Counted from the first letter of the stretch, positions 7,266 to 57,030 are shown. The stretch is DNA of 64,000 bases from Candidatus Micrarchaeota archaeon (GCA_021789155.1 JAJYJW010000001.1:1473-65472); one strand, 5' to 3'. The notes: a model not told the origin generated them from the sequence alone. Numbers and translations are program-made.

Positions 7266-8168
7266 TTAAGGCGAAGAATAGCCCGATTCCCAGTTGCTCG
7301 TGAAGGTTATTCCAGATGCTGCGCCATTGTTGTTGTTTCCTGAGTAATCCTTAGCATCGCCGTTCAAAGGCCACCAGCCAACGAGATTACTTAATTTCAC
7401 CGGTGAACCTCCTACTCCTTCGTTGAATAATGCCGCTATCTCACTAGAGGAAAGAGATGTATTGTACAACTGCACATTAGCCATTTTACCCTTGAATGTT
7501 CCAGACGTGGTCCATCCTACGCCCCCTATTTTGAAAGCTGCAGATTCAAGCAAACCCTGTCCGCTAAGTATTGTACCACTTTGAAATACTTGATTGTTGA
7601 GATAAATTGCAGCATAGCCTGTTGAACCGTCGTATGTTGCAGTTATCATTTCCCATTGGTACTGTGGCAGGTAATCATATCCTGCTGGCCAAAGGAGTGC
7701 TGCCCAATTCGGACCTACGTAAAGTGGCGCACAGTTATTTCCACCTGCACCCCCTGCAATAAGATTGAATCCGTTGCTTGGATCGGTCCAATCGCCGAAT
7801 ACACCGTTGCATAGATCTCCGTTTGTATAGTATACCCATGCGGAAACGGTGAATTTGCCCGTTGTTCCTAAAGAATTAAGCGTAGACGTCTTTGTTACAC
7901 TTATAAAATTGTTTATTTGCCCGTTGAAAACCGCGACGTATTGGGGCAGTTCGCCGTTGCATATTCCCTGAGTATTGATGAATGACGTTGTTCCAGGGCC
8001 GTTTGGCCTGAAGACGTGGCATGCTCCGGGGGGCGCCTTTGGAGTAAAGGTAGAAGCGTTGAAGATTCCGAGCTGGAATAGTGCTCCTAGGACTACTGCG
8101 ATGATCAGGATCGCCCATCCGTATGTCATCAAGTACTCCATCGCAGATTGTAATTTTGATTGGTTCAT
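7266..8168 (-). CDS. type IV pilin-like (class III signal peptide) LamG/ConA-like domain protein, paralog 1
   Basis: MNQSKLQSAMEYLMTYGWAILIIAVVLGALFQLGIF is a short leader followed by a hydrophobic pilin helix. LamG_3-like hallmarks: FTVSAW, TYDGSTGYAAIYLNN, MANVQLYNTSLSSSEIAALF. Confidence 0.75.
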   Translation of the reverse strand: MNQSKLQSAMEYLMTYGWAILIIAVVLGALFQLGIFNASTFTPKAPPGACHVFRPNGPGTTSFINTQGICNGELPQYVAVFNGQINNFISVTKTSTLNSLGTTGKFTVSAWVYYTNGDLCNGVFGDWTDPSNGFNLIAGGAGGNNCAPLYVGPNWAALLWPAGYDYLPQYQWEMITATYDGSTGYAAIYLNNQVFQSGTILSGQGLLESAAFKIGGVGWTTSGTFKGKMANVQLYNTSLSSSEIAALFNEGVGGSPVKLSNLVGWWPLNGDAKDYSGNNNNGAASGITFTSNWESGYSSP

Positions 8169-8178
8169 AATACAGCCT

Positions 8179-9090
8179 TCATGGAGCGGAATAGCCCGAT
8201 TCCCAGTTGCTCGTGAAGGTCACCGAACCTGAGATCTGACCATTATTGTTATTTCCTGAATAATCCTTTGTGTCGCCATTCAATGGCCACCAACCCATTA
8301 GCTTGTTTAACTTAACTGGGGCGCCGCCTATGCCCTCCTGATAAAGCGCACTTACTTCATTTGATGTGAGAGACGCATTGTATGCTTGTACGTTTGCTAT
8401 CATGCCAAAGAATTGATTTCCCGCAAGTCCGTCAGCTATTGGGCCTATGCCTATCTGAAACGTTCCTTCTGTTGCAGGCAATATGCTTTGGGTATGTGAA
8501 TAAATCAACGCCCCATCCAGATACAAATTATACGCAGCACCATCGTAAGTTACCCCTACGAAGTGCCATGAACCGTAGCTATATGCACTTCCTTCAGAAG
8601 GCCATCCAGGCAAACCATATCCATATATTGCGATATGCTTAGTTGATCCGGTGCCGTCTGCCAGAGATCCTGATGCTATCTCCATAAGGCCTGCATCTCC
8701 TCCGGAACTTGCCATTATCCTCTGACAGCAGTTGCCCGCGCCAAGAATGCTAGGATTGAACCATGCAAAATAGGAAAAAGTACCTGTATTAGATATGGTG
8801 TATGTTGGTACGTTAACATATTGGATTACACTCTTTTCTCCTTGAAGATCAAATCCGCCAACATATTGAGGTAGCTCTCCGTTGCATATTCCCTGAAGGT
8901 TTACGAAAGAAGTTGTCATAGGGCCGTTTGGACGAAATACATGACACGCATCTGGTGGTGCCTTGGGTGTGAAGGTTGATGCGTTGAAAATGCCGAGTTG
9001 AAACAAAGCGCCAAGTACGACTGCGATAATCAAAATGGCCCACCCATAAGTCATGAGATATTCCATTGCACTCTGAAGTTTATAAGCCAT
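8179..9090 (-). CDS. type IV pilin-like LamG-domain protein, paralog 2
   Basis: MAYKLQSAMEYLMTYGW... start at ATG 9090 (track start 9126 would overlap the upstream gene). SWHFVGVTYDGAAYNLYLDG, IANVQAYNASLTSNEVSALY. 10 nt upstream of paralog 1. Confidence 0.75.
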   Translation of the reverse strand: MAYKLQSAMEYLMTYGWAILIIAVVLGALFQLGIFNASTFTPKAPPDACHVFRPNGPMTTSFVNLQGICNGELPQYVGGFDLQGEKSVIQYVNVPTYTISNTGTFSYFAWFNPSILGAGNCCQRIMASSGGDAGLMEIASGSLADGTGSTKHIAIYGYGLPGWPSEGSAYSYGSWHFVGVTYDGAAYNLYLDGALIYSHTQSILPATEGTFQIGIGPIADGLAGNQFFGMIANVQAYNASLTSNEVSALYQEGIGGAPVKLNKLMGWWPLNGDTKDYSGNNNNGQISGSVTFTSNWESGYSAP

Positions 9091-9098
9091 AAAAATCA

Positions 9099-10034
9099 CT
9101 ACGGCGCTGAATAACCGGATTCCCAACTACTTGTGAAACTTACTGCAGATGGAACACCATTATTGTTGTTTCCTGAATAATCCTTTGTGTCTCCATTCAG
9201 AGGCCACCAGCCAACGAGATTGTTGAGTTTTAACGGGGCGCCGCCTATGCCCTCCTGATACAACGCCGCAACCTCGTTTGAGGATAACGAAGTGTTGTAA
9301 ACCTGGACGTTTGCCATTTCGCCAGGAAACATATCTCCTGTATTTCCTCCGATTTTCATAGGATTAGCATTGCCTGTAGCTAGATTCCCAGGTACCCCTG
9401 TAAGTGTTCCCTTTGAAACTCCATTTATGTATAGGGTTACAGTTCCTGCAGTGCCATCATACACACCGACGTAATTCACCCAAGTATTTGCGGGATTTGC
9501 AACCTGGGGATTTTCATAATAGCGAGTGTTAGCAGGGCTAGGACCTACTACTTCAAATGCGACTGCATTGTTATGATAACTGTATGGTTCCATGAGAAGA
9601 TCATACTGGCTGTTCGAACAGCATGCAGGAAACCCGAATAATCCCCTATACACGTCATTGAATGAATAGGATAACATTATCCAGATACTCACGCTTACCG
9701 CGTTGTGATTGGAGAACAATAGTGCGGTACTTCCAGGAGAAATGTACGAGTTTGTTCCATCGAACTTTGCAACGTACTGTGGCAATTCACCGTTGCAAAT
9801 TCCCTGAAGATTAATGAATGAGGTCGTTGCTGGGCCGTTTGGCCTGAATACGTGACATGCACCAGGAGGAGCCTTTGGGGTGAAGGTTGATGCGTTGAAA
9901 ATACCTAGTTGGAAGAGTGCACCTAGGACTACTGCGATGATTAGAATTGCCCAGCCATAGGTCATGAGATATTCCATCGCTGATTGTAATGTTGCTGCGT
10001 TCTTTTCCTGCATTGTATCTGCTAGGTTATCCAT
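9099..10034 (-). CDS. type IV pilin-like LamG-domain protein, paralog 3
   Basis: ..TLQSAMEYLMTYGWAILII.. with start at 10034 or ATG 10013. WVNYVGVYDGTAGTVTLYINGV, MANVQVYNTSLSSNEVAALY. 8 nt upstream of paralog 2. Confidence 0.75.
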   Translation of the reverse strand: MDNLADTMQEKNAATLQSAMEYLMTYGWAILIIAVVLGALFQLGIFNASTFTPKAPPGACHVFRPNGPATTSFINLQGICNGELPQYVAKFDGTNSYISPGSTALLFSNHNAVSVSIWIMLSYSFNDVYRGLFGFPACCSNSQYDLLMEPYSYHNNAVAFEVVGPSPANTRYYENPQVANPANTWVNYVGVYDGTAGTVTLYINGVSKGTLTGVPGNLATGNANPMKIGGNTGDMFPGEMANVQVYNTSLSSNEVAALYQEGIGGAPLKLNNLVGWWPLNGDTKDYSGNNNNGVPSAVSFTSSWESGYSAP

Positions 10035-10061: not shown

Positions 10062-10178
10062 CGCTAGGAGTGGGAATCGAACCCACGAAGGCCATTTCTA
10101 GCCAAACAGCTTAGCAGGCTGCCGCCCTTTCGTGCGTTTATTGCGTATGCAAAAAGCGAACCACTAGGCGATCCCAGC
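10062..10178 (-). tRNA. tRNA-Ser (anticodon GCU) with ~25-30 nt insertion in the D-loop
   Basis: Minus-strand read: acceptor GCTGGGA/TCCTAGC(+G); D arm GCC-TAGTGGTT[insert]AAGGGC; anticodon arm GCAGC-CTGCTAA-GCTGT; long variable arm GGCTA-GAAA-TGGCC; T arm GTGGG-TTCGATT-CCCAC. Confidence 0.75.
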
Positions 10179-10243
10179 GCAAAGTTAGTTTACACTTTAA
10201 TCCTATTAAAGCTATCTGTAATGTGCTTGTTTAACTCGTCAGT

Positions 10244-10501
10244 GCAGCGGCCGGCACCGCACGATAATTTCCAAATAGGTTGGCCATGCGTCAGCTCGAC
10301 CCCGTATCCGCGAAGCATAGCTCTGCATGTTTAGGGTTGCTCCTTCCGGCCTCGCCCGGTTCGCATGCATGACTACCGCCGTGGGCGGAATCTCATAACA
10401 TCTGCATGGGCCCATTTGGAAGCTTAGGGCACTATGCCAGCATAAGGCTCGCCTATAGGGGATTTGCGATGAGGGAAACCCCTAGCTTCCCACCGTGCTG
10501 C
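10244..10501 (-). ncRNA. SRP RNA (7S RNA)
   Basis: Minus strand carries the helix-8 signature GGCCGGAAGGAGCAACCC. 5' GCAGC pairs with 3' GCTGC. GC-rich, ORF-free gap between the tRNA and the TRAM gene. Ends are approximate. Confidence 0.7.
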
Positions 10502-10566
10502 ATATTCTATTTGCATAGATGGTTTAATAGGATGTAGCATTGACGCTGAGGTCAATTTATAATTAT

Positions 10567-12513: not shown

Positions 12514-14956
12514 CCTCTGGAACTATCTCTGCTTCCTGTGCGGATTCTGCATCTTCATCGTCTTGTTCTATCAGTCGTGCATCCACTATCCTGGATCCTT
12601 GCTCCACTTTCATCAGCCTCACGCCTTTTGCCGCTCTGCCCGTTATTCTTACGGAATCTACGCTGAACTTTATTATAACTCCATTGGAACTCATCAAGAG
12701 CACTGCGGATTTCTGGTTGACGAACATAGCCTTCGCTACTTCTCCGGTCTTATCGCTCGTCTTAATGTTTATCACACCGCTTCCTCCCCTTGATTGCACC
12801 CTGTACATATTCGTTTCGGTTAGCTTTCCGTATCCCTTTTCGGTTACGGTTAGGACGTAGCCATCACCGTACATGGGTATTACGCCTAGTGCGCTGTCTC
12901 CTTCTTGTAGCCTTATTCCGCGAACTCCCATCGAGGTTCTTCCGGTCTGCCTCACGTCCTCTTCATCGAATCTTATGCACTTGCCCTTCTTCGTTACTAT
13001 CATCAATTGAACGTTTCCGGAGTAAAGCTTTGCATCTGATATAGAGTCGCCATCGTTTATCGTTATCGCCCTCACGCCTGTTGATCTAGGTCTGGAGAAG
13101 AGTATCGCGTCGCTCTTCTTTACCAACCCACGTGTTGTGAGGAAGACTATTGATTTGTCTTCGAATTCCCTCGCGCTGAGTATGGTTACCACTTTCTCTT
13201 CGTTGAGATTCAACATGTTCACTATCGCTTTGCCTTCCGCGTATCTGCCCTCTTCCGGAACTGCGTATGCTTTCAGCCAGAACGCCCTTCCCTTATCGGT
13301 TATGCAGACCAGATAATCCTTTGTCATGCATCTGACTATCTGCTTAACGTAATCATTCTCCTTCAGGCCCATCGCGATGACCCCTCTGCCGCCTCTGCCC
13401 TGCTCTTTGTAAGAATCGATTCCCATGCGCTTGACGTATCCCGAATTTGTGAATATCACCGTAACCTCTTCGTCCTTTATCAAAGATTCATCGCTTATTT
13501 CCTCTCCCTCTGAAACGATTAGTTTGGTTCTCCTTGGCCTTCCGTATTCTACGCTTATGTCAGTGGTTTCCTTTGTTATTATTTCGTCTATCAGCTTCGG
13601 GTTTTCTATGACCGAAGTGAAATATCTTATCTTTTCTTCAAGCTCTTTCTTCTCCCTTTCAAGAGAATCGTGCTCCAAGCTGGTGAGCTTGCTTATCTTC
13701 ATGTCGAGTATGGCGTTTGCCTGCTTTTCTGAGAAATTGTATTGCTCGATCAAAGAGCGCCTTGCATCAGCTAGCTCCCTGCTGTTCCTGACAAGCTTCA
13801 CTATGTTGTCTATGTCGCCAATCGCAACTATCAGCCCTTCCACTATGTGGTCTCTGTCTCTCGCTACTCCGAGCTCGTATTCGCTTCTTCTCCTTATTAC
13901 CGTGCGCCTGTGATCTATGAACACTTTGAGCATTTCAAGCAGGTTGAGGCTTCTGAGCTTGTTGCCGACTACTGCCAAGCTGATCATAGGGAAGGTTGAT
14001 TCGAGCTGCGTGTGCTTGAACAGGGAATTGAGGACTATTTGAGGGTTGGCGTCGGATTTCAATTCTATTACTACCCTTATTCCATCTTTGTCGCTTTCAT
14101 CACGAACGTTGCTTATGCCCGTTATGATCTTGTCCTTGACCAAGCTCGCTATGTTCTGGATTATCGACGCTTTGTTCGTCGCGTAAGGCATTTCGTCGAA
14201 CACTATCTGCCTGTTTTTCTCATCGATTATCGCGTTTGCCCTTATTGTGACGCGACCCCTGCCATGAACGTACGCATCGCTTGTCCTGCTTGAAAGCAAC
14301 GCTATTCCGCCAGTGGGGAAATCAGGACCTTTTATTATATTCATAATGTCCGCTATGTGTGCTTCTGGATTAGCCAAAAGATGGAGAATGGCATCGCATA
14401 CTTCCTTCAGGTTGTGTGGTGGTATGCTGGTTGAAACCCCAACTGCTATTCCGGAGGTGCCGTTAATCAGAAGATTCGGAAGTTTTGCTGGAAGAAGCAC
14501 CGGCTCCTTTTCGGTGTTGTCGAAATTCGGCTGCATGTCCACCGTATTCTTTTCCAGATCAGCAAGCATCTCTCCGGCAAGCTTCGTCAACCTCACCTCA
14601 GTATACCTCATTGCCGCTGGCGGGTCTCCATCGACTGAGCCGAAGTTACCCTGACCTTCGACGAATTTGTGGTTCATTGAGAATTCCTGCGCCATTCTCA
14701 CCAAGGCATCGTAAACCGCTATATCGCCATGGGGATGGTACTTACCTATAACCTCTCCGGTTACTCTGGCGCTCTTCTTCGTTGGCTGCGTATGCACGTT
14801 GTTTATGCTATACATCGCGTAGAGTATCCTTCTCTGAACTGGCTTCAATCCATCTCTAGCGTCGGGAATTGCTCTTCCCACTATTACGCTCATCGCATAA
14901 TCTATGTAGCTTGATTGCAGTTCGTCTTCGAGATTTATTGGAACTATCCTTTCCAT
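12500..14956 (-). CDS. gyrA: DNA gyrase subunit A
   Basis: [37 protein letters not shown] (active-site Tyr context), C-terminal beta-pinwheel repeats; 818 aa. Confidence 0.95.
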
Positions 14957-21944: not shown

Positions 21945-23447
21945 ATGCTAAAGCAGATATTCGAAAAGCTTACTTTAAATAAACGCGCTTTGCCTAGCAG
22001 AGCGAAACTTGGAATTGGGATAGAACAACTACATGGAGAACAGATAGAGGAAATAACAGGAAACATCCCGAAAACCATAGTAAAACGCTTCGGCAGGATG
22101 TTTTACGCTGTGAGAGGCGACTATGTCTCCGCAAATAATACGGAAGAAACTATTCTGGAGGAAGTAAAATTCTCAGCGATAGAACATTTCTCTGAAAGGA
22201 CACATATAGGAATTGAAGAATTGAAAGACGTGAGAGATTACGTCTTGACGCTGCTTTTACAGCGCTTTGCTGCGGATAGGGCTTCGAAACTTTCGTGGCT
22301 AATAGCATATGATCTAGTTGGCTTTGGCCCTTTAGGTATACTGCTCGATAATGCGAATGATCTTGAAGAGATAGAAGTCAATTCGCCAACTTCCAGAATT
22401 TTCGTGGTTCATGCAAAATTCGGAAGATGCGAGACCAATTTAAGATTCGTTGATGAAGCGAATTTCACCCGAAACATCAATGCATTCATTGAAGAGTGCG
22501 GAAAGGAACTCAACGATAATAATCCAATAGTCGATGCGCAAGTTAATATGTCGAGAGTGCATGCGCAGTTGAAACCCTATGCTGCAAGGGGCGCATGCGC
22601 AACCATAAGGATAGGCAATAAGACCGAGATTAATGCGTGTACGATAGCGGACCAAGGCACTGCGAGCTACAGAATGCTTGCGTACTTGTGGATGGCAGTA
22701 GAGTGCAAAATGAACGTCGTGATAGCCGGAGCTCCTGCAAGCGGCAAGACTACTCTGCTAGGGGTTATGCTTGGGTTCGTGCCAAAGTACAGGAAAATAA
22801 TAACCGTTGAAGAAGAAGTTGGAGAATTCAACATGTATGGCAACGCGCAAAGCTTCATACCCCTATATGGCAAGAAGGGGCTCAACCGCATAGGGGTTAA
22901 AGAACAGGTGATAAATGCGTTGAGGATGAGGCCTGATGTGTTGGTTCTGGGAGAACTACGTGCGGAAGAGGCGCGAGAGGCTTTTGCTGCATGCAACGTC
23001 GGCATAGAATTCCTCACCACTATACACTCAAACGAAGACGCGAATAGCATATTGCGTAGGTTAAGCTTGCGCCCGATGAACGTTGATCCTGCGGCTCTGC
23101 AGGCCATTGATCTCGCAATTTACATGAAAATTAACGACAGAGGAAATAGAGTTTTGCATGGGTTGCACGAACTTCGTTGGCTAAGTAAGGCCGAAATACT
23201 CGATCCAGAGATTTTGGTGGGAGACAATTCCCTATCAGTAACTAACATGATCTACAACAGCACGTGGAATCGAGAGTGCGAGGCGAAAAGCAAGGTGATA
23301 GAAAGATTTTCGCAGCTCAATAAAATTGACCTAAACAAGAGCATTGAGGAACTTGACAAAAGGGAAGCATATCTGAAATCGTGCGCGCCTTACGCCAGAG
23401 ACACTCTCGCAGTTATAGACAAGCTGGCCACTTATGGGATTTCATGA
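21945..23447 (+). CDS. type IV filament assembly ATPase (FlaI/ArlI/PilB/TadA-like, T2SSE family)
   Basis: Walker A VIAGAPASGKTTLLG, Walker B/Asp box PDVLVLGELRAEEA, His box FLTTIHSN; 500 aa. Confidence 0.85.
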   Translation: MLKQIFEKLTLNKRALPSRAKLGIGIEQLHGEQIEEITGNIPKTIVKRFGRMFYAVRGDYVSANNTEETILEEVKFSAIEHFSERTHIGIEELKDVRDYVLTLLLQRFAADRASKLSWLIAYDLVGFGPLGILLDNANDLEEIEVNSPTSRIFVVHAKFGRCETNLRFVDEANFTRNINAFIEECGKELNDNNPIVDAQVNMSRVHAQLKPYAARGACATIRIGNKTEINACTIADQGTASYRMLAYLWMAVECKMNVVIAGAPASGKTTLLGVMLGFVPKYRKIITVEEEVGEFNMYGNAQSFIPLYGKKGLNRIGVKEQVINALRMRPDVLVLGELRAEEAREAFAACNVGIEFLTTIHSNEDANSILRRLSLRPMNVDPAALQAIDLAIYMKINDRGNRVLHGLHELRWLSKAEILDPEILVGDNSLSVTNMIYNSTWNRECEAKSKVIERFSQLNKIDLNKSIEELDKREAYLKSCAPYARDTLAVIDKLATYGIS

Positions 23448-24091
23448 AAATTGCTTATTTCATATCTGCAACGATGCTAGGGATTGTTTGCGGCGTCATA
23501 TTGGCATACAGCAACTCGGCAAACGATATTTACCACGCGTTGCCATTTCTTGTAGAAGGATTGCTCATTGCGGCAGTGATAGAACGATGCAGGGAATTAC
23601 TTTCCGATTCAAAACAGAGGGATAGTCGCAAACGCGATATGGAACGGGCAATTGAGTGCATGGAAGAAATGAGAACTAAAGGCTCCTCAATTGCAGGTGC
23701 CCTCGATAGTATTTTGGGGCTTGTATACGATATTTCTGTAATTGGAGACCTTCGAAAGGAGCTGACAAGACGCAAACTGGGGAAAACTATTTCCGCACCT
23801 TACTTAAATAAACAAAATTTGGAAAGTGTCGAAAATAGGATAAAGGAGAGCGCGAGCAACGCCGCTATTTCTACAGCAAAGACATTGCACACCCTGCAGA
23901 ATGTCTCCACCTTGAACATGTTCATAGCGAGCATCATACCTTCGTTCATCGTATTCGGCTTTGTATCTGAAACCGTTTTGGTTGGAGGAACCTTTAATTA
24001 TGGCGCATTTGCTGAGGCGCTCGTGATATTCGTGCCTTTGGCGTATTTGTTTCCCAAATTCTATCTTTCGAGGAAATTACTTGAGATTTGA
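23444..24091 (+). CDS. putative filament platform membrane protein, half 1 (T2SSF/TadB-like)
   Basis: ATGA overlap with the ATPase stop. Topology is TM-TM, helical cytoplasmic segment (..KGSSIAGALDSIL..), TM-TM. Position directly after the ATPase. Confidence 0.5.
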   Translation: MKIAYFISATMLGIVCGVILAYSNSANDIYHALPFLVEGLLIAAVIERCRELLSDSKQRDSRKRDMERAIECMEEMRTKGSSIAGALDSILGLVYDISVIGDLRKELTRRKLGKTISAPYLNKQNLESVENRIKESASNAAISTAKTLHTLQNVSTLNMFIASIIPSFIVFGFVSETVLVGGTFNYGAFAEALVIFVPLAYLFPKFYLSRKLLEI

Positions 24092-24809
24092 AACCTATCT
24101 GAGCATAATTGCAACTGCGCTTTCGGCATTGGCCTATTTCTTGTTAGGCCCAGACTGGGCGCTTGCTGCAATAGTTTTATACTACCTCTTTATTGCCATC
24201 TTGGCCCGCAGGAAAACTAATGGAGGGGAGATATTGATTAGCGGAGAGGCAGCAAGGATTTATAGGGAAACGCATTCCGCAAGATACACTCTTAAAGGGA
24301 TATCGCATTTGTCCCAGATATTCCCACGAATATCGTATAGAATACGAATTGGGTCACGGGCCAAAGAGAAACAATCTAATTCGCCCATACGAAAAGTTGC
24401 AGATATCTTGGAGTGGGGCGCTGAAAAAGGCATAGATATTCAATATGCGCTTGACAAGGTGCTTGCAGACGCTTTGAAAGACAGGAAGAAAGCCGAACTT
24501 GTGTCTGATAGAGTACTAGGAATGGAAAGACTTTCGGTTATTGGAATGAGCGTATTCTTTCCCCTGTTCGCTGGCACATGTGCGAGCATACTTTATGGAT
24601 CTACTTCCGGAACGATGGTGCAGACCATGATAAGCCCTCTGTTCAACCTGGTCATATGCATGTCAGTATGGGAAATTGCAACTATAAAACGAATCATGGA
24701 AGATCCTGAGGGCAATATTCTAGAAGGCGCAGCCGAAAGTTCACCTGCTGCAATGCTGGCGCTGTTTGTCACGCTTATGGCGCAGGCTTATTCTGCTTAT
24801 GTTATGTGA
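24081..24809 (+). CDS. putative filament platform membrane protein, half 2 (T2SSF/TadC-like)
   Basis: Same TM-TM / cytoplasmic (..EKGIDIQYALDKVL..) / TM layout. TTG start overlaps the upstream stop by 11 nt. Confidence 0.45.
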   Translation: MRFETYLSIIATALSALAYFLLGPDWALAAIVLYYLFIAILARRKTNGGEILISGEAARIYRETHSARYTLKGISHLSQIFPRISYRIRIGSRAKEKQSNSPIRKVADILEWGAEKGIDIQYALDKVLADALKDRKKAELVSDRVLGMERLSVIGMSVFFPLFAGTCASILYGSTSGTMVQTMISPLFNLVICMSVWEIATIKRIMEDPEGNILEGAAESSPAAMLALFVTLMAQAYSAYVM

Positions 24810-25054
24810 GTGATTTGATGTGTGATATATGCAATCTAAAAGCCGCATTTTTGGTAGCAAAGAGCTGCAGACTACAGGGTTCAATGGAATACATAATGAT
24901 GCTCGCGGCTGCGAGCTTGGTTATCGTATTGGCAGTGACGATGGTCGTCAAGATGAAGCAGGCAGTGGTTCATAACATTACTATAGGGAATAACAGTATG
25001 AGCATAGCTCAGGCGATATCGAGCCAGCTGCAAAGCATATCAAACATGTCGTGA
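24806..25054 (+). CDS. small pilin-like protein (candidate major pilin; mature ~57 aa)
   Basis: ..KSCRLQG|SMEYIMMLAAASLVIVLAV.. class III signal-like. Alternative TTG start at 24851 would give a short basic leader. Sequons NIT, NNS, NMS. Confidence 0.55.
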   Translation: MSDLMCDICNLKAAFLVAKSCRLQGSMEYIMMLAAASLVIVLAVTMVVKMKQAVVHNITIGNNSMSIAQAISSQLQSISNMS

Positions 25055-25058
25055 ACAC

Positions 25059-25433
25059 ATGAAAATACAAACGTCGTTCGAATTCATGATATACCTAATG
25101 CTGTCTGCTGTGGCTTTAATGATAAGCATGCGGTCAATTAACAGCGCAATAGCGCAGTTTTACGGGGTTTTGTCTAATTCTGAGATGAATAATCTCGTCT
25201 CCAAAATAAATTATGCTGCGTTATCATATACTAGCATGAGTTTTGATGCGTACCTGCCTGATGGAGTATGCAATGCCAAAATCAACAACAGTCAACTGTC
25301 AACAGAATACGGGAATTTCACATTAGGACACGATGTAAAGCTGCAAAATGCGACTTTATGCCCTGACAAAACTGAAGCACGTTTCGACATAATCGATAGC
25401 AATGGTTTTTTTGTAGTTTCAAGAGTGAGGTAA
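25059..25433 (+). CDS. pilin-like protein (124 aa)
   Basis: MKIQ|TSFEFMIYLMLSAVALMISM N-terminus (K-I-Q-T-S-x-E-F followed by a hydrophobic helix). Confidence 0.55.
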   Translation: MKIQTSFEFMIYLMLSAVALMISMRSINSAIAQFYGVLSNSEMNNLVSKINYAALSYTSMSFDAYLPDGVCNAKINNSQLSTEYGNFTLGHDVKLQNATLCPDKTEARFDIIDSNGFFVVSRVR

Positions 25434-25592
25434 ATGCTTGCGCAGATCAGCTTTGAAGTCATAATCGGATTGGTTGCGATGTCGTTATTCCTGCTTTTCG
25501 TAATAATGTTAATACACGCATTGTCTCACGAATACGTTGAAGCGCGAAACATTTCTTATGTTATCCAAATCTATGCTGAGTTTTATGCGTAA
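25434..25592 (+). CDS. very small pilin-like protein (52 aa), not in ORF track
   Basis: ATG immediately after the TAA of the upstream gene. MLAQISFEVIIGLVAMSLFLLFVIMLIHAL... (Q-I-S-F-E followed by a hydrophobic helix), hand-translated. Confidence 0.4.
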   Translation: MLAQISFEVIIGLVAMSLFLLFVIMLIHALSHEYVEARNISYVIQIYAEFYA

Positions 25593-25938
25593 CTCCAAAT
25601 GTAATATATCCTTAGAGTTGATGGTTCTTCTGATGGTTGGGGTAGCATGCAGTACAAGCATAATGATTGGCTTCCGTCAGTTATCCGGAGTTTACGCCAA
25701 AAGCATGAAATTCGTATCCAACTACGAAATGGCTTATAACATATCATCTGCTCTGATATCTGTGCTATCATCAGAAGGTAGTTGCATCCGCACTAATTCC
25801 ACTCAGCATTCCATTTTTCAATATTATGTGGTTTGTGACGTAACCAGAACATGCGGTCCTGGGGAAATATGTCGCATATTTACATATGGAGATGGTGAAG
25901 ACGCTTTATTGGTGGTGAAATATGAGAATACAGACTAG
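25585..25938 (+). CDS. pilin-like protein (start ambiguous: 25537 TTG, 25573 ATG or 25585 ATG)
   Basis: MRNSKCNISLELMVLLMVGVACSTSIMIGF is a basic leader, S-L-E-L and a hydrophobic helix. ATG 25585 overlaps the upstream stop (ATGCGTAA). Confidence 0.5.
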   Translation: MRNSKCNISLELMVLLMVGVACSTSIMIGFRQLSGVYAKSMKFVSNYEMAYNISSALISVLSSEGSCIRTNSTQHSIFQYYVVCDVTRTCGPGEICRIFTYGDGEDALLVVKYENTD

Positions 25939-27199
25939 CATAGAGTTCATATCTATGCTCGCTTTGGTAACAGTAGTGGCATTGATTGGCATATCGCAGT
26001 TCAAAACTAGCATGACATTCGCGAAAAATTCTATTGATGTGGCATACTCAATGAATGTATCTGCATTGAAAAGCAACATGAGTTATGGAAGCGTTCGCGT
26101 GTTCGCGGCTATCCAGAATGCAACCCTGCTAAACTACAGCTATATTGCCCAGATTGGAGTTACTGGATGTGACAATGGCAGCGTGCGTGCAGAATATTTG
26201 GGCAACGGGATACGGTTGAAGGAAAGAAACGCAAGTTTCGAATTCAAATACGCGGCAACACACCCCATTCAATTTACGCCCATAACCCGAGGCTCTGATT
26301 GGATTAACGTATCCTATTTTTGGAAATGCGAAAACCAAAGTGGTAGTGGTTTACTATCCCTTAACACTTTTGCGTATGCCGAAAACAAAAACGGCTATTC
26401 GCAGTTTCTACAGGCAGGATACTCCAATGGCGATTATTTCACCATATATTCCAGAAAGGAGAGCGAGGTGTTCTCCCTTCATTCTCTGGGCGATGCAACG
26501 CGATTCTACATTTTCAGCCATTGTACGTATGCAAGCATGTTCGGTCCTACGCCGATAGACAGGCAATGCGGAACCTTAAACGCATGGATGTATTCCGTTT
26601 TTTCCTCTAATTGTCAAACTACCAGCAATTTCTATACGGAAACGTATTGCATATTGCCTAAGGATTCCGGCTATAACTACGGAATCGTAGACCAGTTTTC
26701 TGGGATATCGAACTACTCTTTCGCACTTCACCTGCATTATTCCAATAAGGATTACACCGCAAATGTTACCGGACGGGGAAATTCCGCGAAGTTCACTGGA
26801 AATCTACCTGGAAAGCCAAGTATGAACTATAGCGCATCAAGCGTCTCAGTAGGAAACGTTGCATATTCACGAAATACCAGTTCGGGGAACGAAAGAATAG
26901 CTAACTACTCCTTGCTACTCAACTACATGCAGCATGGAAGTTCGGTTCTGGATATGCTCTCTTATTATAACAACTCTTTTTTGATTCCACAGGAACAGCA
27001 GGCGTTGCAAGAACAACTTCTTGCGTATTCAAATGCGATGTCGGCATTTTTGAATTCCTCTGGGGAAAATGGAAAATGTACAGTACAGAATGCGAGCTAC
27101 TCATGTGCAAGCCCTCAGATAGATTATATCATAGTAGACAACGCTAGCGGAAATGCCGAGAATCTTTCCTATGCTGGCTCTTTGATGAGATTAGGGTGA
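25922..27199 (+). CDS. large pilin-like, sequon-dense secreted protein (425 aa)
   Basis: MRIQ|TSIEFISMLALVTVVALIGI N-terminus. About 18 N-x-S/T sequons by manual count. Overlaps the upstream gene by 17 nt. Confidence 0.6.
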   Translation: MRIQTSIEFISMLALVTVVALIGISQFKTSMTFAKNSIDVAYSMNVSALKSNMSYGSVRVFAAIQNATLLNYSYIAQIGVTGCDNGSVRAEYLGNGIRLKERNASFEFKYAATHPIQFTPITRGSDWINVSYFWKCENQSGSGLLSLNTFAYAENKNGYSQFLQAGYSNGDYFTIYSRKESEVFSLHSLGDATRFYIFSHCTYASMFGPTPIDRQCGTLNAWMYSVFSSNCQTTSNFYTETYCILPKDSGYNYGIVDQFSGISNYSFALHLHYSNKDYTANVTGRGNSAKFTGNLPGKPSMNYSASSVSVGNVAYSRNTSSGNERIANYSLLLNYMQHGSSVLDMLSYYNNSFLIPQEQQALQEQLLAYSNAMSAFLNSSGENGKCTVQNASYSCASPQIDYIIVDNASGNAENLSYAGSLMRLG

Positions 27200-27200
27200 C

Positions 27201-27569
27201 GTGTTGCAAGTGATATACGCCATAGAAACTGCGTTGGTCATTGCCATAACATTAATCTGCATATTGACAATGCTCTATTACTCTGTTATGATAAGGAACA
27301 ATTCTGCGTACGCTGTTAGAAGATTGCACGTTTCGATGGAGCTTGAGGACATTTCTAATTTGTTTGTTAAGAACATGTCCGCAAAAGAATGCTCTTACAG
27401 AATATATTTGGGAAATGGAACGTGCGCGTCGTCATACTTGGGTTATGTTAATCGGAGTTACGGCAGTGAAATAAGCATAAGCGACACCGCGGCAAGTGGG
27501 GATTATTTGTGTTTTGCTGATGTGTACAACGGCATTTATTTTGTGCCCTGTGTTTCTGTGGTTAGATGA
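27201..27569 (+). CDS. pilin-like/TadE-like protein (122 aa)
   Basis: GTG start 1 nt after the upstream stop. N-terminus MLQVIYAIETALVIAITLICIL resembles the TadE-type motif (..E-x-A-L-V..). Confidence 0.45.
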   Translation: MLQVIYAIETALVIAITLICILTMLYYSVMIRNNSAYAVRRLHVSMELEDISNLFVKNMSAKECSYRIYLGNGTCASSYLGYVNRSYGSEISISDTAASGDYLCFADVYNGIYFVPCVSVVR

Positions 27570-27787: not shown

Positions 27788-27839
27788 AATCCCGGAAAAG
27801 CACAACATATAAATAGCGTATTCGACAAAAGAGCATTAT

Positions 27840-27924
27840 GGCCTTGGTGGTGTAACGGCGGCACGGAAGGCTGTGGACCTTCAAGACCGGGTCCGACATA
27901 AAAACGGAAATCCCGGCCTAGGCC
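27840..27924 (+). tRNA. tRNA-His (anticodon GUG) with encoded G-1 and ~13-nt insertion in the T-loop
   Basis: G(-1)+GCCTTGG / CCTAGGC+C (one U-U mismatch); D arm GTGT-AACGGCG-GCAC; anticodon arm GAAGG-CTGTGGA-CCTTC; T stem CCGGG/CCCGG enclosing 20 nt (TCCGACATAAAAACGGAAAT) instead of 7. Confidence 0.65.
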
Positions 27925-27933
27925 TATTCTAAT

Positions 27934-29472
27934 TCAGAACAAGTACAGACTTATTAGCCTTATAATCTTCTTGAGGAACTTAACGAACGAGTTCGAATTC
28001 CACTTGACATCTCCGACGAACTGCTTGTATCTTTGCTTTTCCTCAGGAGTTAGTTTTCCTTCCTTGACCCTTTCGGTTCTCTTTCCATCTACTACTTCCA
28101 CTTCGGTTTTGCTGATTATGTCTTTCTTGATCATCCCATACCATTCGTCAAGGGAATTACCATGTTTCCTAATCTCCACTAAGAAGTCCTTTGTCTTTAG
28201 CTTCCTCTTCCTTCCAGTCCTATCCTCTTCTGCAGCAACACGCAAAGCCGCATCATCGCATATTTCCTGTATGTCTGCATGCGAGAATCCTATTGTTGCG
28301 CGTGCCAATCTACCGAAGGCTACGCTACCTACCGGCATATTCCTTGTTTGGTATATGAAAGCACCTTTCCTTTCCTTCAAGTTGGGCGGCCTCAGATATA
28401 TTGACTTGCCAAACCTGCCGCTTCTCTTCAAGGCAGGGTCCATATCCCAAGGTTGGTTCGTCGCGCCAACTACGAATATGCCCTCTGGGTTTTTCTCTAT
28501 GCCGTCTAGTTCCTGAAGGAACTGGTTTACTGCCATGCGCATGCCGCTGCCACCACCTCCGCCGCTTTCGCTGTCCCTCTTCGTACCTAAAGCGTCTACT
28601 TCATCGAAGAATAACAGGCAGGGAGCATTTTTTCTAGCATTTTCGAATATTGCATGCATGTTTTTCTCGGTATTACCTGCATACATGTCCACTATCTGGT
28701 TTATGTTGGCGAGTATTACGCCCGAGCCAGTTTCTCCGCTGACTGCTCTTATGAAATTGGTTTTTCCACAACCTGGTGGCCCATAGAATAGAACTCCTAC
28801 GCCTATCTTCTTGCCATAAGATTTGAGAAGTTCTGGTTTTTTTATCGCAAGTGTAACATTCTGGTATATGAATTCCTTCTCCTTGTCCATTCCTACTATG
28901 TCCCTAAACGTAGATGTGAAGTGCCTAACGTCCACCTGCTTTATCTGGCCCTCTTCTATTACTGTTCCGGTTTGCTGGGTTTGCGGTGACGCCTTTGCTA
29001 CCCCGACGTTTATGCCAGGAGCACCTTGCTGGGCCATTGCAGCCTCGGATTTGGTACTTATGCCAAGTTTCTCGTTGACCTGTGCGAGTTTGGTTTTCGC
29101 CGGAGCATATGTAGGGTTTTTCTCTAGGGCCTTATTGAACCATTCCTTTGCTCCCTGATAATCTTTCTGAGACTCGTAGATTATACCCATTATGTAAGGG
29201 GCATCGTGGCTATCTGGTTCTTTCTTCATTACCTGCTCTATGTCGCGCTCTGCCAAATCATATTTGTTGGTTATTGCATAGGATAATGCCCTGTTGAAAT
29301 ATGCGCTCGAATAATCTGGATCTAGATTTATTGCCTGTGAATAGAGTTCGATCGCTTCGTCGAACTTGTTGTCTTCGAATAAGTTGCCAGCTTTTGTGTA
29401 AAGTTCCTTTGCGAGTGGGTTTGCCGTTCCTCCCTTTCCCGCCGGTTTGTTCTCTTCAGGCATTATACTCAT
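27934..29472 (-). CDS. TPR-repeat AAA+ ATPase (single classical AAA module)
   Basis: N-terminal TPR repeats (FDEAIELYSQAINLDPDYSSAYFNRALSY..). Walker A FYGPPGCGKT, Walker B LLFFDEVDAL, second region of homology GATNQPWDMDPALKRSGRF. Confidence 0.8.
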   Translation of the reverse strand: MSIMPEENKPAGKGGTANPLAKELYTKAGNLFEDNKFDEAIELYSQAINLDPDYSSAYFNRALSYAITNKYDLAERDIEQVMKKEPDSHDAPYIMGIIYESQKDYQGAKEWFNKALEKNPTYAPAKTKLAQVNEKLGISTKSEAAMAQQGAPGINVGVAKASPQTQQTGTVIEEGQIKQVDVRHFTSTFRDIVGMDKEKEFIYQNVTLAIKKPELLKSYGKKIGVGVLFYGPPGCGKTNFIRAVSGETGSGVILANINQIVDMYAGNTEKNMHAIFENARKNAPCLLFFDEVDALGTKRDSESGGGGGSGMRMAVNQFLQELDGIEKNPEGIFVVGATNQPWDMDPALKRSGRFGKSIYLRPPNLKERKGAFIYQTRNMPVGSVAFGRLARATIGFSHADIQEICDDAALRVAAEEDRTGRKRKLKTKDFLVEIRKHGNSLDEWYGMIKKDIISKTEVEVVDGKRTERVKEGKLTPEEKQRYKQFVGDVKWNSNSFVKFLKKIIRLISLYLF

Positions 29473-29954: not shown

Positions 29955-30043
29955 TCCCGATTGAAAATATACAATAAGGAACGTATATGTGAAATATAAA
30001 CCTTATAGAAAAAGATGGCCTGTATTGAACAGGCCGGAAAGGA

Positions 30044-30271
30044 TTATCTCCTTCCCTTTCTGTTCATCTTTGCCCTTGCTACGAAGCCGCCCTTGTCAAG
30101 GAAGTATAGGAAGCCTTCTGCCCTGCTGATTTTCTCGCTTCCGACCTTTGCCTTTCTTCCTCTTGGGTTTATCTTCTTCATTGGAGTTTTCCAGACATAC
30201 CCGTCTTTTCCTATGTAATACAGGTATCCGTCTTCTCTGCTGATTTTCTCTTTACCAATTCTCTCTGCCAT
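30044..30271 (-). CDS. small basic protein with internal tandem duplication (75 aa)
   Basis: Two copies of EKISR[EA][DE]G[YF]LY[YF][IL].K.G[YF]V separated by a K/R-rich linker. Ends in NRKGRR. Confidence 0.5.
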   Translation of the reverse strand: MAERIGKEKISREDGYLYYIGKDGYVWKTPMKKINPRGRKAKVGSEKISRAEGFLYFLDKGGFVARAKMNRKGRR

Positions 30272-30474
30272 TTTTTCACCGAGTATATCTACCGATATAG
30301 TTTTATAAACTTATCGACGTAATGCCGACAGTAAAATACACGTCATGTCGTTTATAAATACTGACGGAAAGCGAAATTGACGAGGAATTGACGGCTATTT
30401 ACGCGTGTAATTTGTGTTGTTTTTGACTGTGAAAACACGCAAGCGATTTTATATTTAATCATGCAATATAAGTT

Positions 30475-39794: not shown

Positions 39795-40679
39795 TCATGG
39801 CGCAGAATACGTGCTTGCCCATTCGCTTGTAAAGGTTACCGCAGACGAAACTCCATTGTTGCCATTTCCAGAGTAATCTTTCGTGTCGCCGTTGAGGGGC
39901 CACCAGCCAACGAGGTTGTTGAGCTGCACAGGCGCGCCGCCTATTCCCTCATTGTACAACGCCACTATCTCATTCGCAGATAATGATGAATTGTATATCT
40001 GAAAGTTCGAATAAAGCCCGCTCCAAGAGAAATCGCCATACGCACCTATGGTCAGCGCCGTGCCGATTTGGTATCCAAGAGGGAGATATGTCCCATAGTT
40101 GTATTGGCAAATCTGCTTCCCGTTATCATATGTTGTTACCGCAAAACCATTGTACGTAACTGCGACGTTGTGCCAACTGCCATCGCTAACCGAATGCGAA
40201 TTGTCGCATGCGTTACGGAGGGTTTTGCTTGTCCACGAATAGAAATATGGGTTCCCTCCAGAATCCGTACCGAACCATATTCCATTGTTGCTGTAGCTTT
40301 GCTTCTGCATGAATTCTTTCCAATTTTTTGTCGTTGATTCTAACCACACCGAAATTGTAATCTGCGTAGGACCAAGCATTGATTTGTCAGGCACATTTGC
40401 ATAGGAAGCTGCGCCTTGCTGCCTCCATACATATTGTGGCAATTCGCCATTGCATATGCCCTGCAAGTTTATGAATGAAGTCGTGCCTGGGCCGTTTGGC
40501 CTGAATACGTGGCATGCGCCAGGAGGTGCCTTTGGAGTAAACGTCGAGGCGTTGAAGATTCCAAGCTGGAACAAGGCACCCAATACGACCGCAATGATGA
40601 GTATCGCCCACCCGTAGGTCATGAGGTATTCCATCGCGCTTTGGAGTCTAGAGTTAATGCCAGTCTTCCTTTCAAACAT
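39795..40679 (-). CDS. type IV pilin-like LamG-domain protein, paralog 4 (dispersed copy)
   Basis: MFERKTGINSRLQSAMEYLMTYGWAILII...; SWHNVAVTYNGFAVTTYDNG; NFQIYNSSLSANEIVALY; tail LVGWWPLNGDTKDYSGNGNNG. ATG shares one base with the upstream ALDH stop (TGATG). Confidence 0.75.
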   Translation of the reverse strand: MFERKTGINSRLQSAMEYLMTYGWAILIIAVVLGALFQLGIFNASTFTPKAPPGACHVFRPNGPGTTSFINLQGICNGELPQYVWRQQGAASYANVPDKSMLGPTQITISVWLESTTKNWKEFMQKQSYSNNGIWFGTDSGGNPYFYSWTSKTLRNACDNSHSVSDGSWHNVAVTYNGFAVTTYDNGKQICQYNYGTYLPLGYQIGTALTIGAYGDFSWSGLYSNFQIYNSSLSANEIVALYNEGIGGAPVQLNNLVGWWPLNGDTKDYSGNGNNGVSSAVTFTSEWASTYSAP

Positions 40680-42295
40680 CACTTCACATTCGCTATGCTT
40701 TGTTCCCTCATGAATTGCTGCAGGTAGAACCTGCTTCCTGTTCCTTTCCCAGTAAGTCCACTGCCTTTCCATCCCACAAAGGTGTGAAGGCCAACCATTG
40801 CGCCAGTAGTGGCACTCGTTTGCCTGTTTATGTATACTACGCCCGCTTGGATTCTATCCTTGAAGTATTTTATCTCGCTGTTCTTAATGCTGTAAAAACC
40901 CGCAGTCAATCCGTAATCGACATCGTTTGCCTTTTCCAGCGCTTCTTCCATGCTCTTGAACGAGTCTACAACCAGTATCGGCACGAAGAGTTCCTCGTGG
41001 AACAGCTTGTTGTCATGCGGCAACTCGACTATGGTGGGTTCTACGTATAATCCTTTCCCGTCGTTAACCACATTACCCCCATGTATTACTCTGCCGGAAC
41101 GATGCGCCTCTTCCATTGCCCATTTGAATTTCTCAAGTGCTTTTGCACTTATCAGAGGGCCGACATAGTTTCTCTTTTCCAAAGGGTTTCCTATGTTAAA
41201 ACCTCTTACCTTGTCTACTAACTTGCTCACGAACTGCTCCTTTACCGAATTATGCACGTACAGTCTCGAACATGCACTGCACTTCTGTCCTGCAAATCCG
41301 AATGCTGCGCTTGCAACACCATCAACAGCATTGTCTAAGTCTGCGTATTTTGAAACGATCGCGGGATTCTTGCCCCCCATTTCGACGACGAAAACTTTTT
41401 GGTGGTTTTGGACCAGAGATTTTGCCACCATGCCCATGCCCGTTGTGCGCGATCCGGTAAATGCTATCCCTGAAACCAAGGGGCTCGTGACCAATTCGTC
41501 CCCCACTTCGGAACCAGGTCCGGTCACGATGTTGAAAACCCCCTCCGGAATTCCTGCTTCCTTGAATATTTCGTATATTTTTACCCCGGTAAGCATAGTC
41601 ATGTTATCTGTTGATGACGGTTTGAATACCACAGTATTGCCGGTTATCAGAGCGCCGGTGCTCATTCCCACAGATATAGATATTGGAAAATTGAACGGCG
41701 CTATAACTCCGAAAACTCCATAAGGCATCATTCTTATCTCGACTTTTTCGGTGTTTCCCGGAGCCCCTTGAAAGCCTGCATTTACTTTGCTTGTGCTGCC
41801 CAAGGATGCTGCCTTCCTAAGATAGCCTTTGTTCCTCTCCAGGTCATCTGCATAATAGCGCAAGAAATCTATAGCTTCGTCAACTTCCCCTATCGACTCG
41901 TACCTCGTCTTTCCGTTCTCTATGCTTAATATCGCAGCTATCGTGAATTTCTCTCTAGCGAAAATGTCTGCAGCATTGCGCATTATCTTGGCTTTCTCCT
42001 TGTAACCTGTAGAACTCCATGAGAGAAATGCCGCCTTTGCCGCGTTTATCGCAGACGTTGCGTGCTCTCTTGTGCCCTTTTGGAACTTGCCGATTAGCAG
42101 GTTTTTGTCTATCGGTGAATATTCTTCTATGAGATCTACTGCATGGACCTCTTTCCCTGCGATATACATGGGGAATGTTGCGCCGAGAATTCCGGATTTT
42201 ACGTTTGCCACTGCATTGTCGAATAGTTTATCGAATTCTTCTTCCCTGTTCTGTTCAACGAATTTTTTAAAAGTAGACTCGTTAGCGAATATCAT
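40679..42295 (-). CDS. aldehyde dehydrogenase (1-pyrroline-5-carboxylate dehydrogenase-like)
   Basis: FTGSRTTG, VVEMGGKNPAIV, FGFAGQKCSACSR (catalytic Glu/Cys contexts); 538 aa. Confidence 0.85.
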   Translation of the reverse strand: MIFANESTFKKFVEQNREEEFDKLFDNAVANVKSGILGATFPMYIAGKEVHAVDLIEEYSPIDKNLLIGKFQKGTREHATSAINAAKAAFLSWSSTGYKEKAKIMRNAADIFAREKFTIAAILSIENGKTRYESIGEVDEAIDFLRYYADDLERNKGYLRKAASLGSTSKVNAGFQGAPGNTEKVEIRMMPYGVFGVIAPFNFPISISVGMSTGALITGNTVVFKPSSTDNMTMLTGVKIYEIFKEAGIPEGVFNIVTGPGSEVGDELVTSPLVSGIAFTGSRTTGMGMVAKSLVQNHQKVFVVEMGGKNPAIVSKYADLDNAVDGVASAAFGFAGQKCSACSRLYVHNSVKEQFVSKLVDKVRGFNIGNPLEKRNYVGPLISAKALEKFKWAMEEAHRSGRVIHGGNVVNDGKGLYVEPTIVELPHDNKLFHEELFVPILVVDSFKSMEEALEKANDVDYGLTAGFYSIKNSEIKYFKDRIQAGVVYINRQTSATTGAMVGLHTFVGWKGSGLTGKGTGSRFYLQQFMREQSIANVK

Positions 42296-55217: not shown

Positions 55218-56271
55218 CCTGTTCAAATCGTTGGACAAGGTGGATGCAGTGTTTCTGTTCAATTCTAGCTCTGCGGATCCGAATTTCACCTACTTTTCAT
55301 CGTTCAAAAGCGGCATATTCGAAGATACGTTCATGATAATAACGAGGAAGAAGATGATGGTTTTCACTTCCTCTTTAGAATACGGGACTGCTGTAGCACA
55401 GAAAAAGCAGGGAATGGAGATAATAAAAATATCCGAATCGGAGCACCTGGTAAAGCAATTCAGGAAGCATCTTTCCGCCAAGAACATCGGCGTAAACGGG
55501 AGGCTCCTGCCCATGCGCACCTACATGTGGCTGAAGAAAAACATTAAGCCGAAGACAGTCGTTGATGTTTCGGAGAAACTGGAAGAGGCAAGGCTGATTA
55601 AAACAAAGGATGAAATAGAGATTTTGAGGACCGCAATAAACATAACAAAAGCAGCGATGATCGAAATCGAAAAGCACCTTGTTAAAGGAATGACAGAAAT
55701 AGAACTCGCGGCAAAGTTCGGTGATGCTGTAGCCTCTTTAGGCGCATCTGGGCTCTCATTCCCTACTATAGTGTGTTTCGGCAAAAACGCGGCAGAACCG
55801 CACCACATGCCCGATGCTACGCGCTTAGTTGAAGGAGATCTTATTCTGGTAGATGCAGGAGCAAAAGTGGACAATTACTGCGCAGACATAACTCGCACCT
55901 TCTTTTTCGGCGACAATACAAAGCATGCTCTGTTTGAGATGTATAACATCGTCAAAGTGGCGCAATATAAGGCGATAAACTCAATAAAACCGGGGATAAA
56001 CGGCAGCGAAGTTCATGCAGTAGCAGAAGAGTACATCAATAATGCAAGCAGTGGAAAATATAGGGGCAAGTTCACGCATTCGTTGGGCCATTCTATCGGC
56101 GTCGAAGTTCACGATGGAAAGGGTTTTTCTAGCTCTGATTCTGGCAGCGCCAATCCTGTAAAACCCGGCATGGTCATAACCGTAGAGCCTGGGATATACG
56201 TAGAGGGACTGGGGGGAGTAAGGATAGAAGACGACGTGCTGGTTACAGAGAACGGATGCGAAGTTTTGTAG
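55180..56271 (+). CDS. Xaa-Pro aminopeptidase/dipeptidase (M24B)
   Basis: Creatinase-N-like N-terminus. [54 protein letters not shown] metal-ligand contexts. Confidence 0.85.
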
Positions 56272-56957: not shown

Positions 56958-57030
56958 GGGGAGTTCTGCTAGCTTGGTAGGCTTCCAGGTTCGGGTCCTG
57001 GCGACACGTGTTCAAATCACGTACTCCCCA
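56958..57030 (+). tRNA. tRNA-Pro (anticodon CGG)
   Basis: GGGGAGT/ACTCCCC+A acceptor; D loop AGCTTGGTA; anticodon arm CCAGG-TTCGGGT-CCTGG; T arm ACGTG-TTCAAAT-CACGT. Confidence 0.85.

Follow-up and report, generated by a model that had tools for sequence, protein, structure and literature searches.

The T loop of a tRNA usually holds 7 nucleotides (nt). In the tRNA-His gene at 27840-27924 (+) of the DNA analyzed here, the corresponding stretch is 20 nt long, which raises the question of whether the surplus is an intron, a permanent part of the mature tRNA, a sign of gene decay or an error of assembly. The stretch as a whole (the window; 64,000 nt) corresponds to positions 55,374-119,373 of a 146,751-bp metagenomic contig (ENA ERZ27233565 k141_1285733). 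A preliminary description of the window had offered two readings of the locus, a very short noncanonical T-loop intron or a degenerate gene.

Structure and detection of the tRNA-His gene

The whole gene, 27840-27924 (+), reads GGCCTTGGTGGTGTAACGGCGGCACGGAAGGCTGTGGACCTTCAAGACCGGGTCCGACATAAAAACGGAAATCCCGGCCTAGGCC. Its parts and the element upstream of it are as follows (throughout, a slash within a run of bases marks a cut).

27808-27815 (+): TATA-box-like element TATAAATA, -32 to -25 from G-1; putative promoter
27840-27897 (+): predicted exon 1 of tRNA-His(GUG), from the encoded G-1 to C59; cloverleaf read off the sequence
27873-27875 (+): anticodon GTG (His), from reading the sequence and from ARAGORN on the intron-less form
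27898-27910 (+): predicted intron of 13 nt, ATAAAAACGGAAA, at tRNA position 59/60; missing from 25 intronless orthologues
27911-27924 (+): predicted exon 2, from U60 to the discriminator C73; CCA not encoded

The identity features of tRNA-His are G-1 (27840) opposite C73 (27924) and the GUG anticodon, and the same arrangement is found in all orthologues. The cloverleaf comprises an acceptor stem (GCCTTGG/CCTAGGC), a D arm (GTGT-AACGGCG-GCAC), an anticodon arm (GAAGG-CTGTGGA-CCTTC) and a variable region of 4 nt (AAGA). All of the elements from which the preliminary description had assigned the gene to tRNA-His (G-1/C73, the D arm and a perfect anticodon arm) were thus read at 27840-27924 (+). 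Its account of the T arm was equally accurate: the perfect T stem, CCGGG (27887-27891) and CCCGG (27912-27916), encloses 20 nt, TCCGACATAAAAACGGAAAT, instead of the usual 7. A single U5.U68 mismatch (27845/27921) is present in the acceptor stem, and the remaining stems are perfect.

The precursor form was not called by ARAGORN, even with introns allowed (-i), and was not reported by Rfam at the gathering threshold. A lenient Rfam scan returned a partial tRNA match of 17.5 bits over the gene, with the T arm skipped. When 27898-27910 were deleted, ARAGORN called a tRNA-His(gtg), while the precursor remained uncalled. Likewise, the intronless orthologues scored 47.5 to 50.6 bits with the Rfam tRNA model (gathering score, 29), and the intron-bearing tRNA-His genes of the window and of two related loci, L128 and L161, were all missed in this scoring.

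ARAGORN calls obtained at a lowered threshold at 30008-30135 (inside a 75-amino-acid [aa] open reading frame [ORF]) and 55685-55812 (coding sequence) were rejected as false positives. The 75-aa ORF, at 30061-30288 (-), is built of two halves that resemble each other and contain GKEKISREDGYLYYIGKDGYVWKTPMKK and GSEKISRAEGFLYFLDKGGFVARAKM, respectively, and has no Pfam match; it is followed by a GC-rich hairpin, ccggcctgttcaatacaggcc, which ARAGORN mistook for a T arm.

Position of the insert

Using BLAST and ARAGORN on Micrarchaeota loci that hold the AAA-TPR gene found next to tRNA-His in the window, we recovered 25 intronless tRNA-His orthologues. The T arm reads CCGGG-TCCGACT-CCCGG in the closest of them (L003, L004, L007 and L010) and also in L052 and L053; the T loops of the remaining orthologues are TCCGATT, TTCGACT or TTCGATT. 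As the orthologous loop is TCCGACT, the loop of the window resolves into TCCGAC, ATAAAAACGGAAA and a final T, and this placement is unique. The preliminary estimate that removal of about 13 nt restores a 7-nt loop is thereby sharpened to exactly 13 nt, with UCCGACU as the predicted spliced loop. After removal of the insert, the gene differs from the intronless L003 at 5 of 72 positions.

The junctions suggested by way of example in the preliminary description, TCCGA/AT and TC/GAAAT, had to be abandoned. Both are acceptable to ARAGORN, but the resulting loops occur in no orthologue and the 2-nt BHB cleavage rule is broken, while the orthologues and the BHB rule both give TCCGAC/.../T, i.e., position 59/60.

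No Rfam family matched the insert, even at an E value of ≤10. Group I and group II introns depend on a catalytic RNA core that is hundreds of nucleotides long, and a self-splicing intron of either group was rejected for an insert of just 13 nt.

A relaxed splicing motif in the T arm

Folding of the T arm and a scan for BHB motifs gave the following elements.

27887-27916 (+): bulge-helix-loop (relaxed BHB) motif made up of the T stem, a 4-bp helix, a 9-nt loop and a 3-nt bulge; MFE fold
27892-27895 (+): 5' strand of the central helix, exon U54 C55 C56 G57, pairing with 27905-27908
27896-27904 (+): 9-nt loop replacing the second bulge and outer helix; strict BHB-rule scan and orthologue loop TCCGACT
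27905-27908 (+): 3' strand of the central helix, intron CGGA; CGGA also in L128 and L161
27909-27911 (+): 3-nt bulge AA/U60 with the predicted 3' splice site at 27910/27911; MFE folds and BHB scan

The MFE fold of the isolated T arm, (((((((((.........))))...))))), has an energy of -11.4 kcal/mol and an ensemble frequency of 0.89, and it recurs in the full precursor. According to the BHB rule, a central helix of 4 bp is cut 2 nt 3' of each of its strands. At the 5' splice site, the predicted cut (AC/A) follows C59 (27897) and precedes A (27898), at a distance of 2 nt from the 3' end of the helix strand. When the outer helix had to be 5 bp or longer, a strict 3-4-3 BHB scan of the whole gene returned a single solution, namely, a TCCG/CGGA helix with the 5-bp T stem outside, the intron ATAAAAACGGAAA and an exon 1 ending at C59. 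The junction of this solution is the one set independently by the orthologue loops.

The second bulge and the second outer helix are absent from the motif, with one U-A pair only in their place. The motif is therefore of the relaxed hBH, or bulge-helix-loop (BHL), type and not a strict hBHBh', and it would not serve the strict α4/α'2 enzymes. Among random 13-mers with the base composition of the window, 1.2% (0.3% when restricted to Watson-Crick pairs) would pair with U54-G57 in the same register, as would 0.2% of shuffles of the insert. This feature of the tRNA-His insert exceeds chance.

Intron-bearing relatives and covariation

One metagenome pattern scan was directed at tRNA-His T arms in which TYCGA is followed by additional bases, and its count of intron-bearing genes is a lower bound. 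Among the matches listed, at least eight distinct intron-bearing tRNA-His genes were found, the window included; ordinary tRNA-His genes with the acceptor strand CCCCGGC accounted for 111 of the 121 matches listed and were set aside. The relatives of the window gene are given below.

L128: intron of 18 nt, ATGTTTTTATCACGGAAA; Micrarchaeota-like, exon loop TCCGAC..T
L161: intron of 15 nt, ACTCCATCGCGGAAA; Micrarchaeota-like, exon loop TCCGAC..T
L082, L129, L156, L169 and L192: 59/60 introns of 17 to 22 nt; other lineages, loop TTCGAA..T

The flanking genes of L128 and L161 have 60 to 70% protein identity to Micrarchaeota loci. Since L082, L129, L156, L169 and L192 carry introns at the same place, the tRNA-His 59/60 intron is not confined to Micrarchaeota; the introns of the other lineages may be independent gains.

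In all eight genes among the matches listed, positions 54-57 form 4/4 pairs with the tetranucleotide located directly before the two final bases of the intron, a 3-nt bulge NN/T is present and the sequence of the intron interior, or loop, varies freely. The same eight genes display a compensatory change between C55:G and U55:A, with TCCG:CGGA on one side and TTCG:CGAA or TTCG:CGAG on the other; the helix is invariant within the Micrarchaeota-type introns, and this covariation is one between lineages only. The three introns of Micrarchaeota type (window, 13 nt; L161, 15 nt; L128, 18 nt) have the 3' end CGGAAA in common. The introns of the other lineages mostly form a full hBHBh', with a second 3-nt bulge and an outer helix of 4 to 6 bp.

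Over the 72 positions compared, the intronless L003 is 4 nt away from the intron-bearing L128 and 5 nt away from the window. This interleaving of alleles with and without the intron among close relatives suggests precise loss or gain of the intron within the clade.

One of the loci from other lineages, L192, contains a perfect direct repeat of 74 nt (1087-1160 and 13868-13941, 12,781 bp apart from start to start). The repeat takes in the 3' part of the tRNA-His gene, the 17-nt intron included; it runs from the anticodon loop to a point 12 nt beyond the 3' end, and a tyrosine integrase (ORF 13027-13824 [-]) and a DNA methylase are encoded between its two copies. This stretch of L192 is an integrated element, and the tRNA intron forms part of its att site.

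Excision or retention of the insert

The best explanation is that 27840-27924 is a functional tRNA-His(GUG) gene of Micrarchaeota with a 13-nt archaeal-type intron at the noncanonical position 59/60, and we consider this very probable. The first of the two preliminary readings, a very short noncanonical T-loop intron, is thus borne out by the assignment of the host to Micrarchaeota, the gap in the orthologues, the BHL motif and the precedent of a 13-nt intron at 59/60 in ARMAN-2.

In the precursor, the intron bases CGGA would pair with U54-G57 of the exon, and the resulting 4-bp helix would stack on the T stem. This pairing would leave the bulge AA/U60 on the 3' side and the 5' junction, A58 C59/A, in the 9-nt loop. 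A broad-specificity EndA, which in this phylum would be the three-unit ε2 enzyme, could then cut 2 nt 3' of each helix strand, and an RtcB-type ligase would join the exons. The expected product is a 72-nt tRNA-His extending from G-1 to C73, with UCCGACU, typical of the clade, as its T loop. Transcription of the gene, cleavage by EndA and ligation are steps that we infer.

If the insert were instead retained, the mature tRNA-His would have an enlarged T arm, with the T stem prolonged by 4 bp, a 9-nt loop and a 3-nt bulge. The stability of this extended hairpin (MFE, -11.4 kcal/mol; 0.89 of the ensemble) would be compatible with such a form, yet we regard it as very unlikely. The extended helix would withdraw U54, C56 and A58 from the interaction between the T loop and the D loop, which is kept in 25 of 25 intronless orthologues and in the other tRNAs of the window. 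Furthermore, the register of the insert, which 1.2% of random 13-mers would match, is exactly the one that suits cleavage by EndA, and a similar insert in the tRNA-Cys of ARMAN-2 is excised in vitro. Finally, inserts of 13, 15 and 18 nt with varied loops all keep CGGAAA, which fits a splicing signal and not a structural arm.

C55, the acceptor mismatch and the question of decay

The second preliminary reading would make the locus a decaying tRNA-His pseudogene, with a functional copy elsewhere in the genome. Three textbook departures from a normal tRNA, i.e., the insert, C55 and U5.U68, could be taken as marks of decay, and the inspection covered about 75 kb of the genome only; no other GUG anticodon arm was present in these ~75 kb of the contig. 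However, two of the three departures recur in intact orthologues.

U55, the Psi55 site, is nearly universal in tRNA. As pointed out in the preliminary description, neither of its two example junctions gives a canonical TTC in the T loop of the window gene; the explanation is a C55 typical of the clade. This base is present in 15 of the 25 Micrarchaeota tRNA-His genes, with the T loop UCCGAYU (L003, L004, L007, L009, L010, L049, L052, L053, L057, L059, L066, L069, L074, L075 and L076), and in none of 78 tRNA-His genes of other lineages among the matches listed for the same pattern. TTC is found in 14 of 15 tRNAs of other isotypes called by ARAGORN in the window and the loci, including tRNA-Gly and tRNA-Pro of the window, and also in the tRNA-Ser of the window. 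C55 was seen in addition in one tRNA-Val(CAC), at L079 6668-6738 (-). Literature searches on C55 in archaeal T loops and on tRNA introns of Micrarchaeota gave nothing specific. The TCC of the T loop is a lineage trait and not a product of decay.

The acceptor mismatch is likewise common. U5.U68 also occurs in L003, L026, L059, L061 and L066, and A6.C67 occurs in L069 and L076; overall, 7 of 18 related tRNA-His genes have a single mismatch at 5:68 or 6:67. In L003, the adjacent pair 6:67 has changed compensatorily from G-C to A-U, with the U.U mismatch retained.

The usual signs of a tRNA pseudogene, such as disrupted stems, a lost promoter or substitutions atypical of the lineage, are not seen at the locus. 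The other stems are perfect, and the TATA-like box is in place; in L074 and L057, the octamer TATAAATA precedes the orthologous tRNA-His gene at an equal distance. The divergence from the intact L003 (5 of 72 nt) is normal, and L128 and L161 have kept an insert with the same splicing signal, which argues for selection. The idea of a degenerate gene can thus be set aside as very improbable. An assembly or sequencing artefact might be suspected in a metagenomic contig but deserves practically no credence, given that the insert is identical in the ENA assembly (L001) and the Logan assembly of run SRR13170411 (L002) and that related, nonidentical inserts are present in independent metagenomes (L128 and L161).

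Host and genomic setting

No ORF extends over the tRNA-His region. The gene is located between a 73-aa gene, which ends at 27787, and the convergent AAA-TPR gene, whose 3' end is at 27934. In GTDB species genomes, this AAA-TPR neighbor was found at 78 loci, nearly all titled Candidatus Micrarchaeota, Micrarchaeia, Micrarchaeales or Micrarchaeaceae, and for full-length matches from named MAGs of Micrarchaeota, the identity is 57 to 69%. Because the AAA-TPR loci are nearly all from Micrarchaeota, we assign the host to the DPANN archaea of the ARMAN-2 phylum (Micrarchaeota). Also encoded on the contig are an archaeal SRP RNA, PolD, PCNA, a proteasome subunit and KH-CPSF.

Directly upstream of tRNA-His, the genes at 21945-27569 (+) form a cluster on one strand. 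It begins with a T2SSE/archaeal type IV pilus ATPase (21945-23447), which is followed by about eight proteins that are small or have a hydrophobic N terminus and are without a Pfam match; the cluster looks like a pilus or archaellum-like locus. At least six paralogous Laminin_G_3 (LamG-like) proteins of about 290 to 310 aa are encoded on the contig, in tandem arrays at three sites.

7266-10034 (-) of the window: LamG-like array
39795-40772 (-) of the window: LamG-like array
11443-13308 of L202: LamG-like array

The probable splicing enzyme

RtcB is the archaeal tRNA exon ligase. Genes for EndA and RtcB were absent from the window and from kb 54.5 to 129.2 of the contig (~75 kb); for EndA, the window and its flanks were searched with precomputed Pfam tables and by tblastn with the EndA of M. 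jannaschii. In a relative from the sister sample ERZ27237452, a three-unit EndA of the ε2 type is encoded at L204 3001-4188, in the gene order DUF92-RadA-TP_methylase-EndA. On the contig of the window (L202 13311-15174), the genes after DUF92-RadA encode a tRNA-Thr editing domain and ThrRS. As ThrRS and not EndA stands after DUF92-RadA, EndA would be located elsewhere in the genome of the window.

A query for the three-unit EndA of ARMAN-2 was assembled from three stretches rebuilt from the PDB alignment (PDB 4fz2). At least 1,414 proteins matched this query (E value, ≤1e-20). The best 120 of these at least 1,414 homologues are 368 to 406 aa long and cover 97 to 100% of the three-unit query, and the homologues with an NCBI organism name are mostly from Micrarchaeota. 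From its phylum, we infer an ε2 EndA for the organism of the window.

Other tRNA and SRP RNA genes of the window

The tRNA-Ser(GCU) gene at 10062-10178 (-) has a long variable arm and an insert of 28 to 31 nt in the D loop. It was missed by both ARAGORN and Rfam, and ARAGORN called a tRNA-Ser(gct) only after removal of the insert. In the best BHB-like parse, which was made manually with one mismatch allowed, a putative intron occupies 10129-10159 at position 20/21; the bulges are GU/U and AA/A, the D stem is the outer helix and the central helix contains one A.G mismatch. This parse is not among the solutions of a strict 4/4 BHB scan, and the loci compared yielded no orthologue of the tRNA-Ser(GCU) gene. 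With this second such intron, in the D loop of tRNA-Ser(GCU), the genome would have to process noncanonical intron substrates.

Two of the four tRNA genes of the window are therefore invisible to ARAGORN and Rfam at default thresholds. Without intron-aware tools, genomes of this phylum will seem to be devoid of tRNA-His and tRNA-Ser.

An SRP RNA is encoded at 10240-10505 (-), with 62 nt separating it from the tRNA-Ser gene downstream. This RNA exceeds the gathering score of Bacteria_large_SRP (70.2 versus 60) and falls below that of Archaea_SRP (77.4 versus 96.5). Although the archaeal model scores higher, only the bacterial one passes, and automatic annotation would therefore label this RNA bacterial. 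The tRNA-Pro(CGG) at 56958-57030 (+) has a weak D stem, with a U10.U25 mismatch, a U13.G22 wobble and two Watson-Crick pairs only. It recalls the tRNA-Pro(CGG) of ARMAN-2, whose D arm was described as having just one Watson-Crick pair (PMC3239211).

Comparison with known systems

The window intron adds one more example to a known class, the 59/60 BHL introns of Micrarchaeota, and as such is ordinary for its lineage; the known mechanism of splicing is unchanged by it. What is new is the host tRNA (His), the presence/absence polymorphism of the intron among relatives and the C55 in the splicing helix. The example joins a small set of 13-nt BHL introns at 59/60, and this set amounts to a minimal substrate definition for broad-specificity archaeal splicing endonucleases. 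It is possible, though we put it forward only tentatively, that a sub-clade of Micrarchaeota replaced U55 by C55 in tRNA-His and at least one tRNA-Val, that a 59/60 mini-intron exploits this change and that loss or gain of the intron is ongoing. If this is true, C55:G and C56:G would make the 4-bp helix strong enough for a 13-nt BHL substrate without a second helix.

The closest known case is the pre-tRNA-Cys(GCA) of ARMAN-2 (Candidatus Micrarchaeum acidiphilum), which has a 13-nt intron at 59/60 with a relaxed hBH (= BHL) motif (Fujishima 2011, PMC3239211). This intron is cut in vitro by the three-unit ε2 EndA (PMC3239211), and the precursor served as a BHL substrate in a structural study of 2025 (PMC12397907). 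It resembles the window gene in phylum, position, intron length and motif type. In contrast, the window tRNA is a tRNA-His, the organism is another one and the exon strand of the helix has C55 in place of U55. The pre-tRNA-Pro(GGG) of ARMAN-2, from the same phylum, also has a T-loop intron at 59/60; however, it contains two introns (53/54 and 59/60) with strict hBHBh' motifs, whereas the window gene has one intron with a relaxed motif.

Outside the phylum, the introns of Crenarchaeota/Thermoproteales and Nanoarchaeota share with the window intron the relaxed HBh' or hBH motifs, the noncanonical positions and the requirement for a broad-specificity endonuclease. The phyla differ, as does the enzyme, which is an (αβ)2 heterotetramer there and is expected to be an ε2 homodimer for the window. 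Likewise, the tRNA-His genes of L082, L129, L156, L169 and L192 have their introns at 59/60 and pair positions 54-57 with the intron, but these introns are 17 to 22 nt long, their genes have U55 (loop TTCGAAT) and their motifs are mostly full hBHBh'.

The window intron also follows the geometry of the canonical archaeal BHB intron at 37/38. In both, a 5-bp stem carries a 7-nt loop, the intron is inserted behind nucleotide 6 of the loop, nucleotides 1 to 4 of the loop pair with the intron to form the central helix and the predicted or known cuts are 2 nt 3' of the helix strands. Unlike the window intron, the canonical intron interrupts the anticodon loop, generally possesses both bulges and the second outer helix and can be cut by the strict α4/α'2 enzymes.
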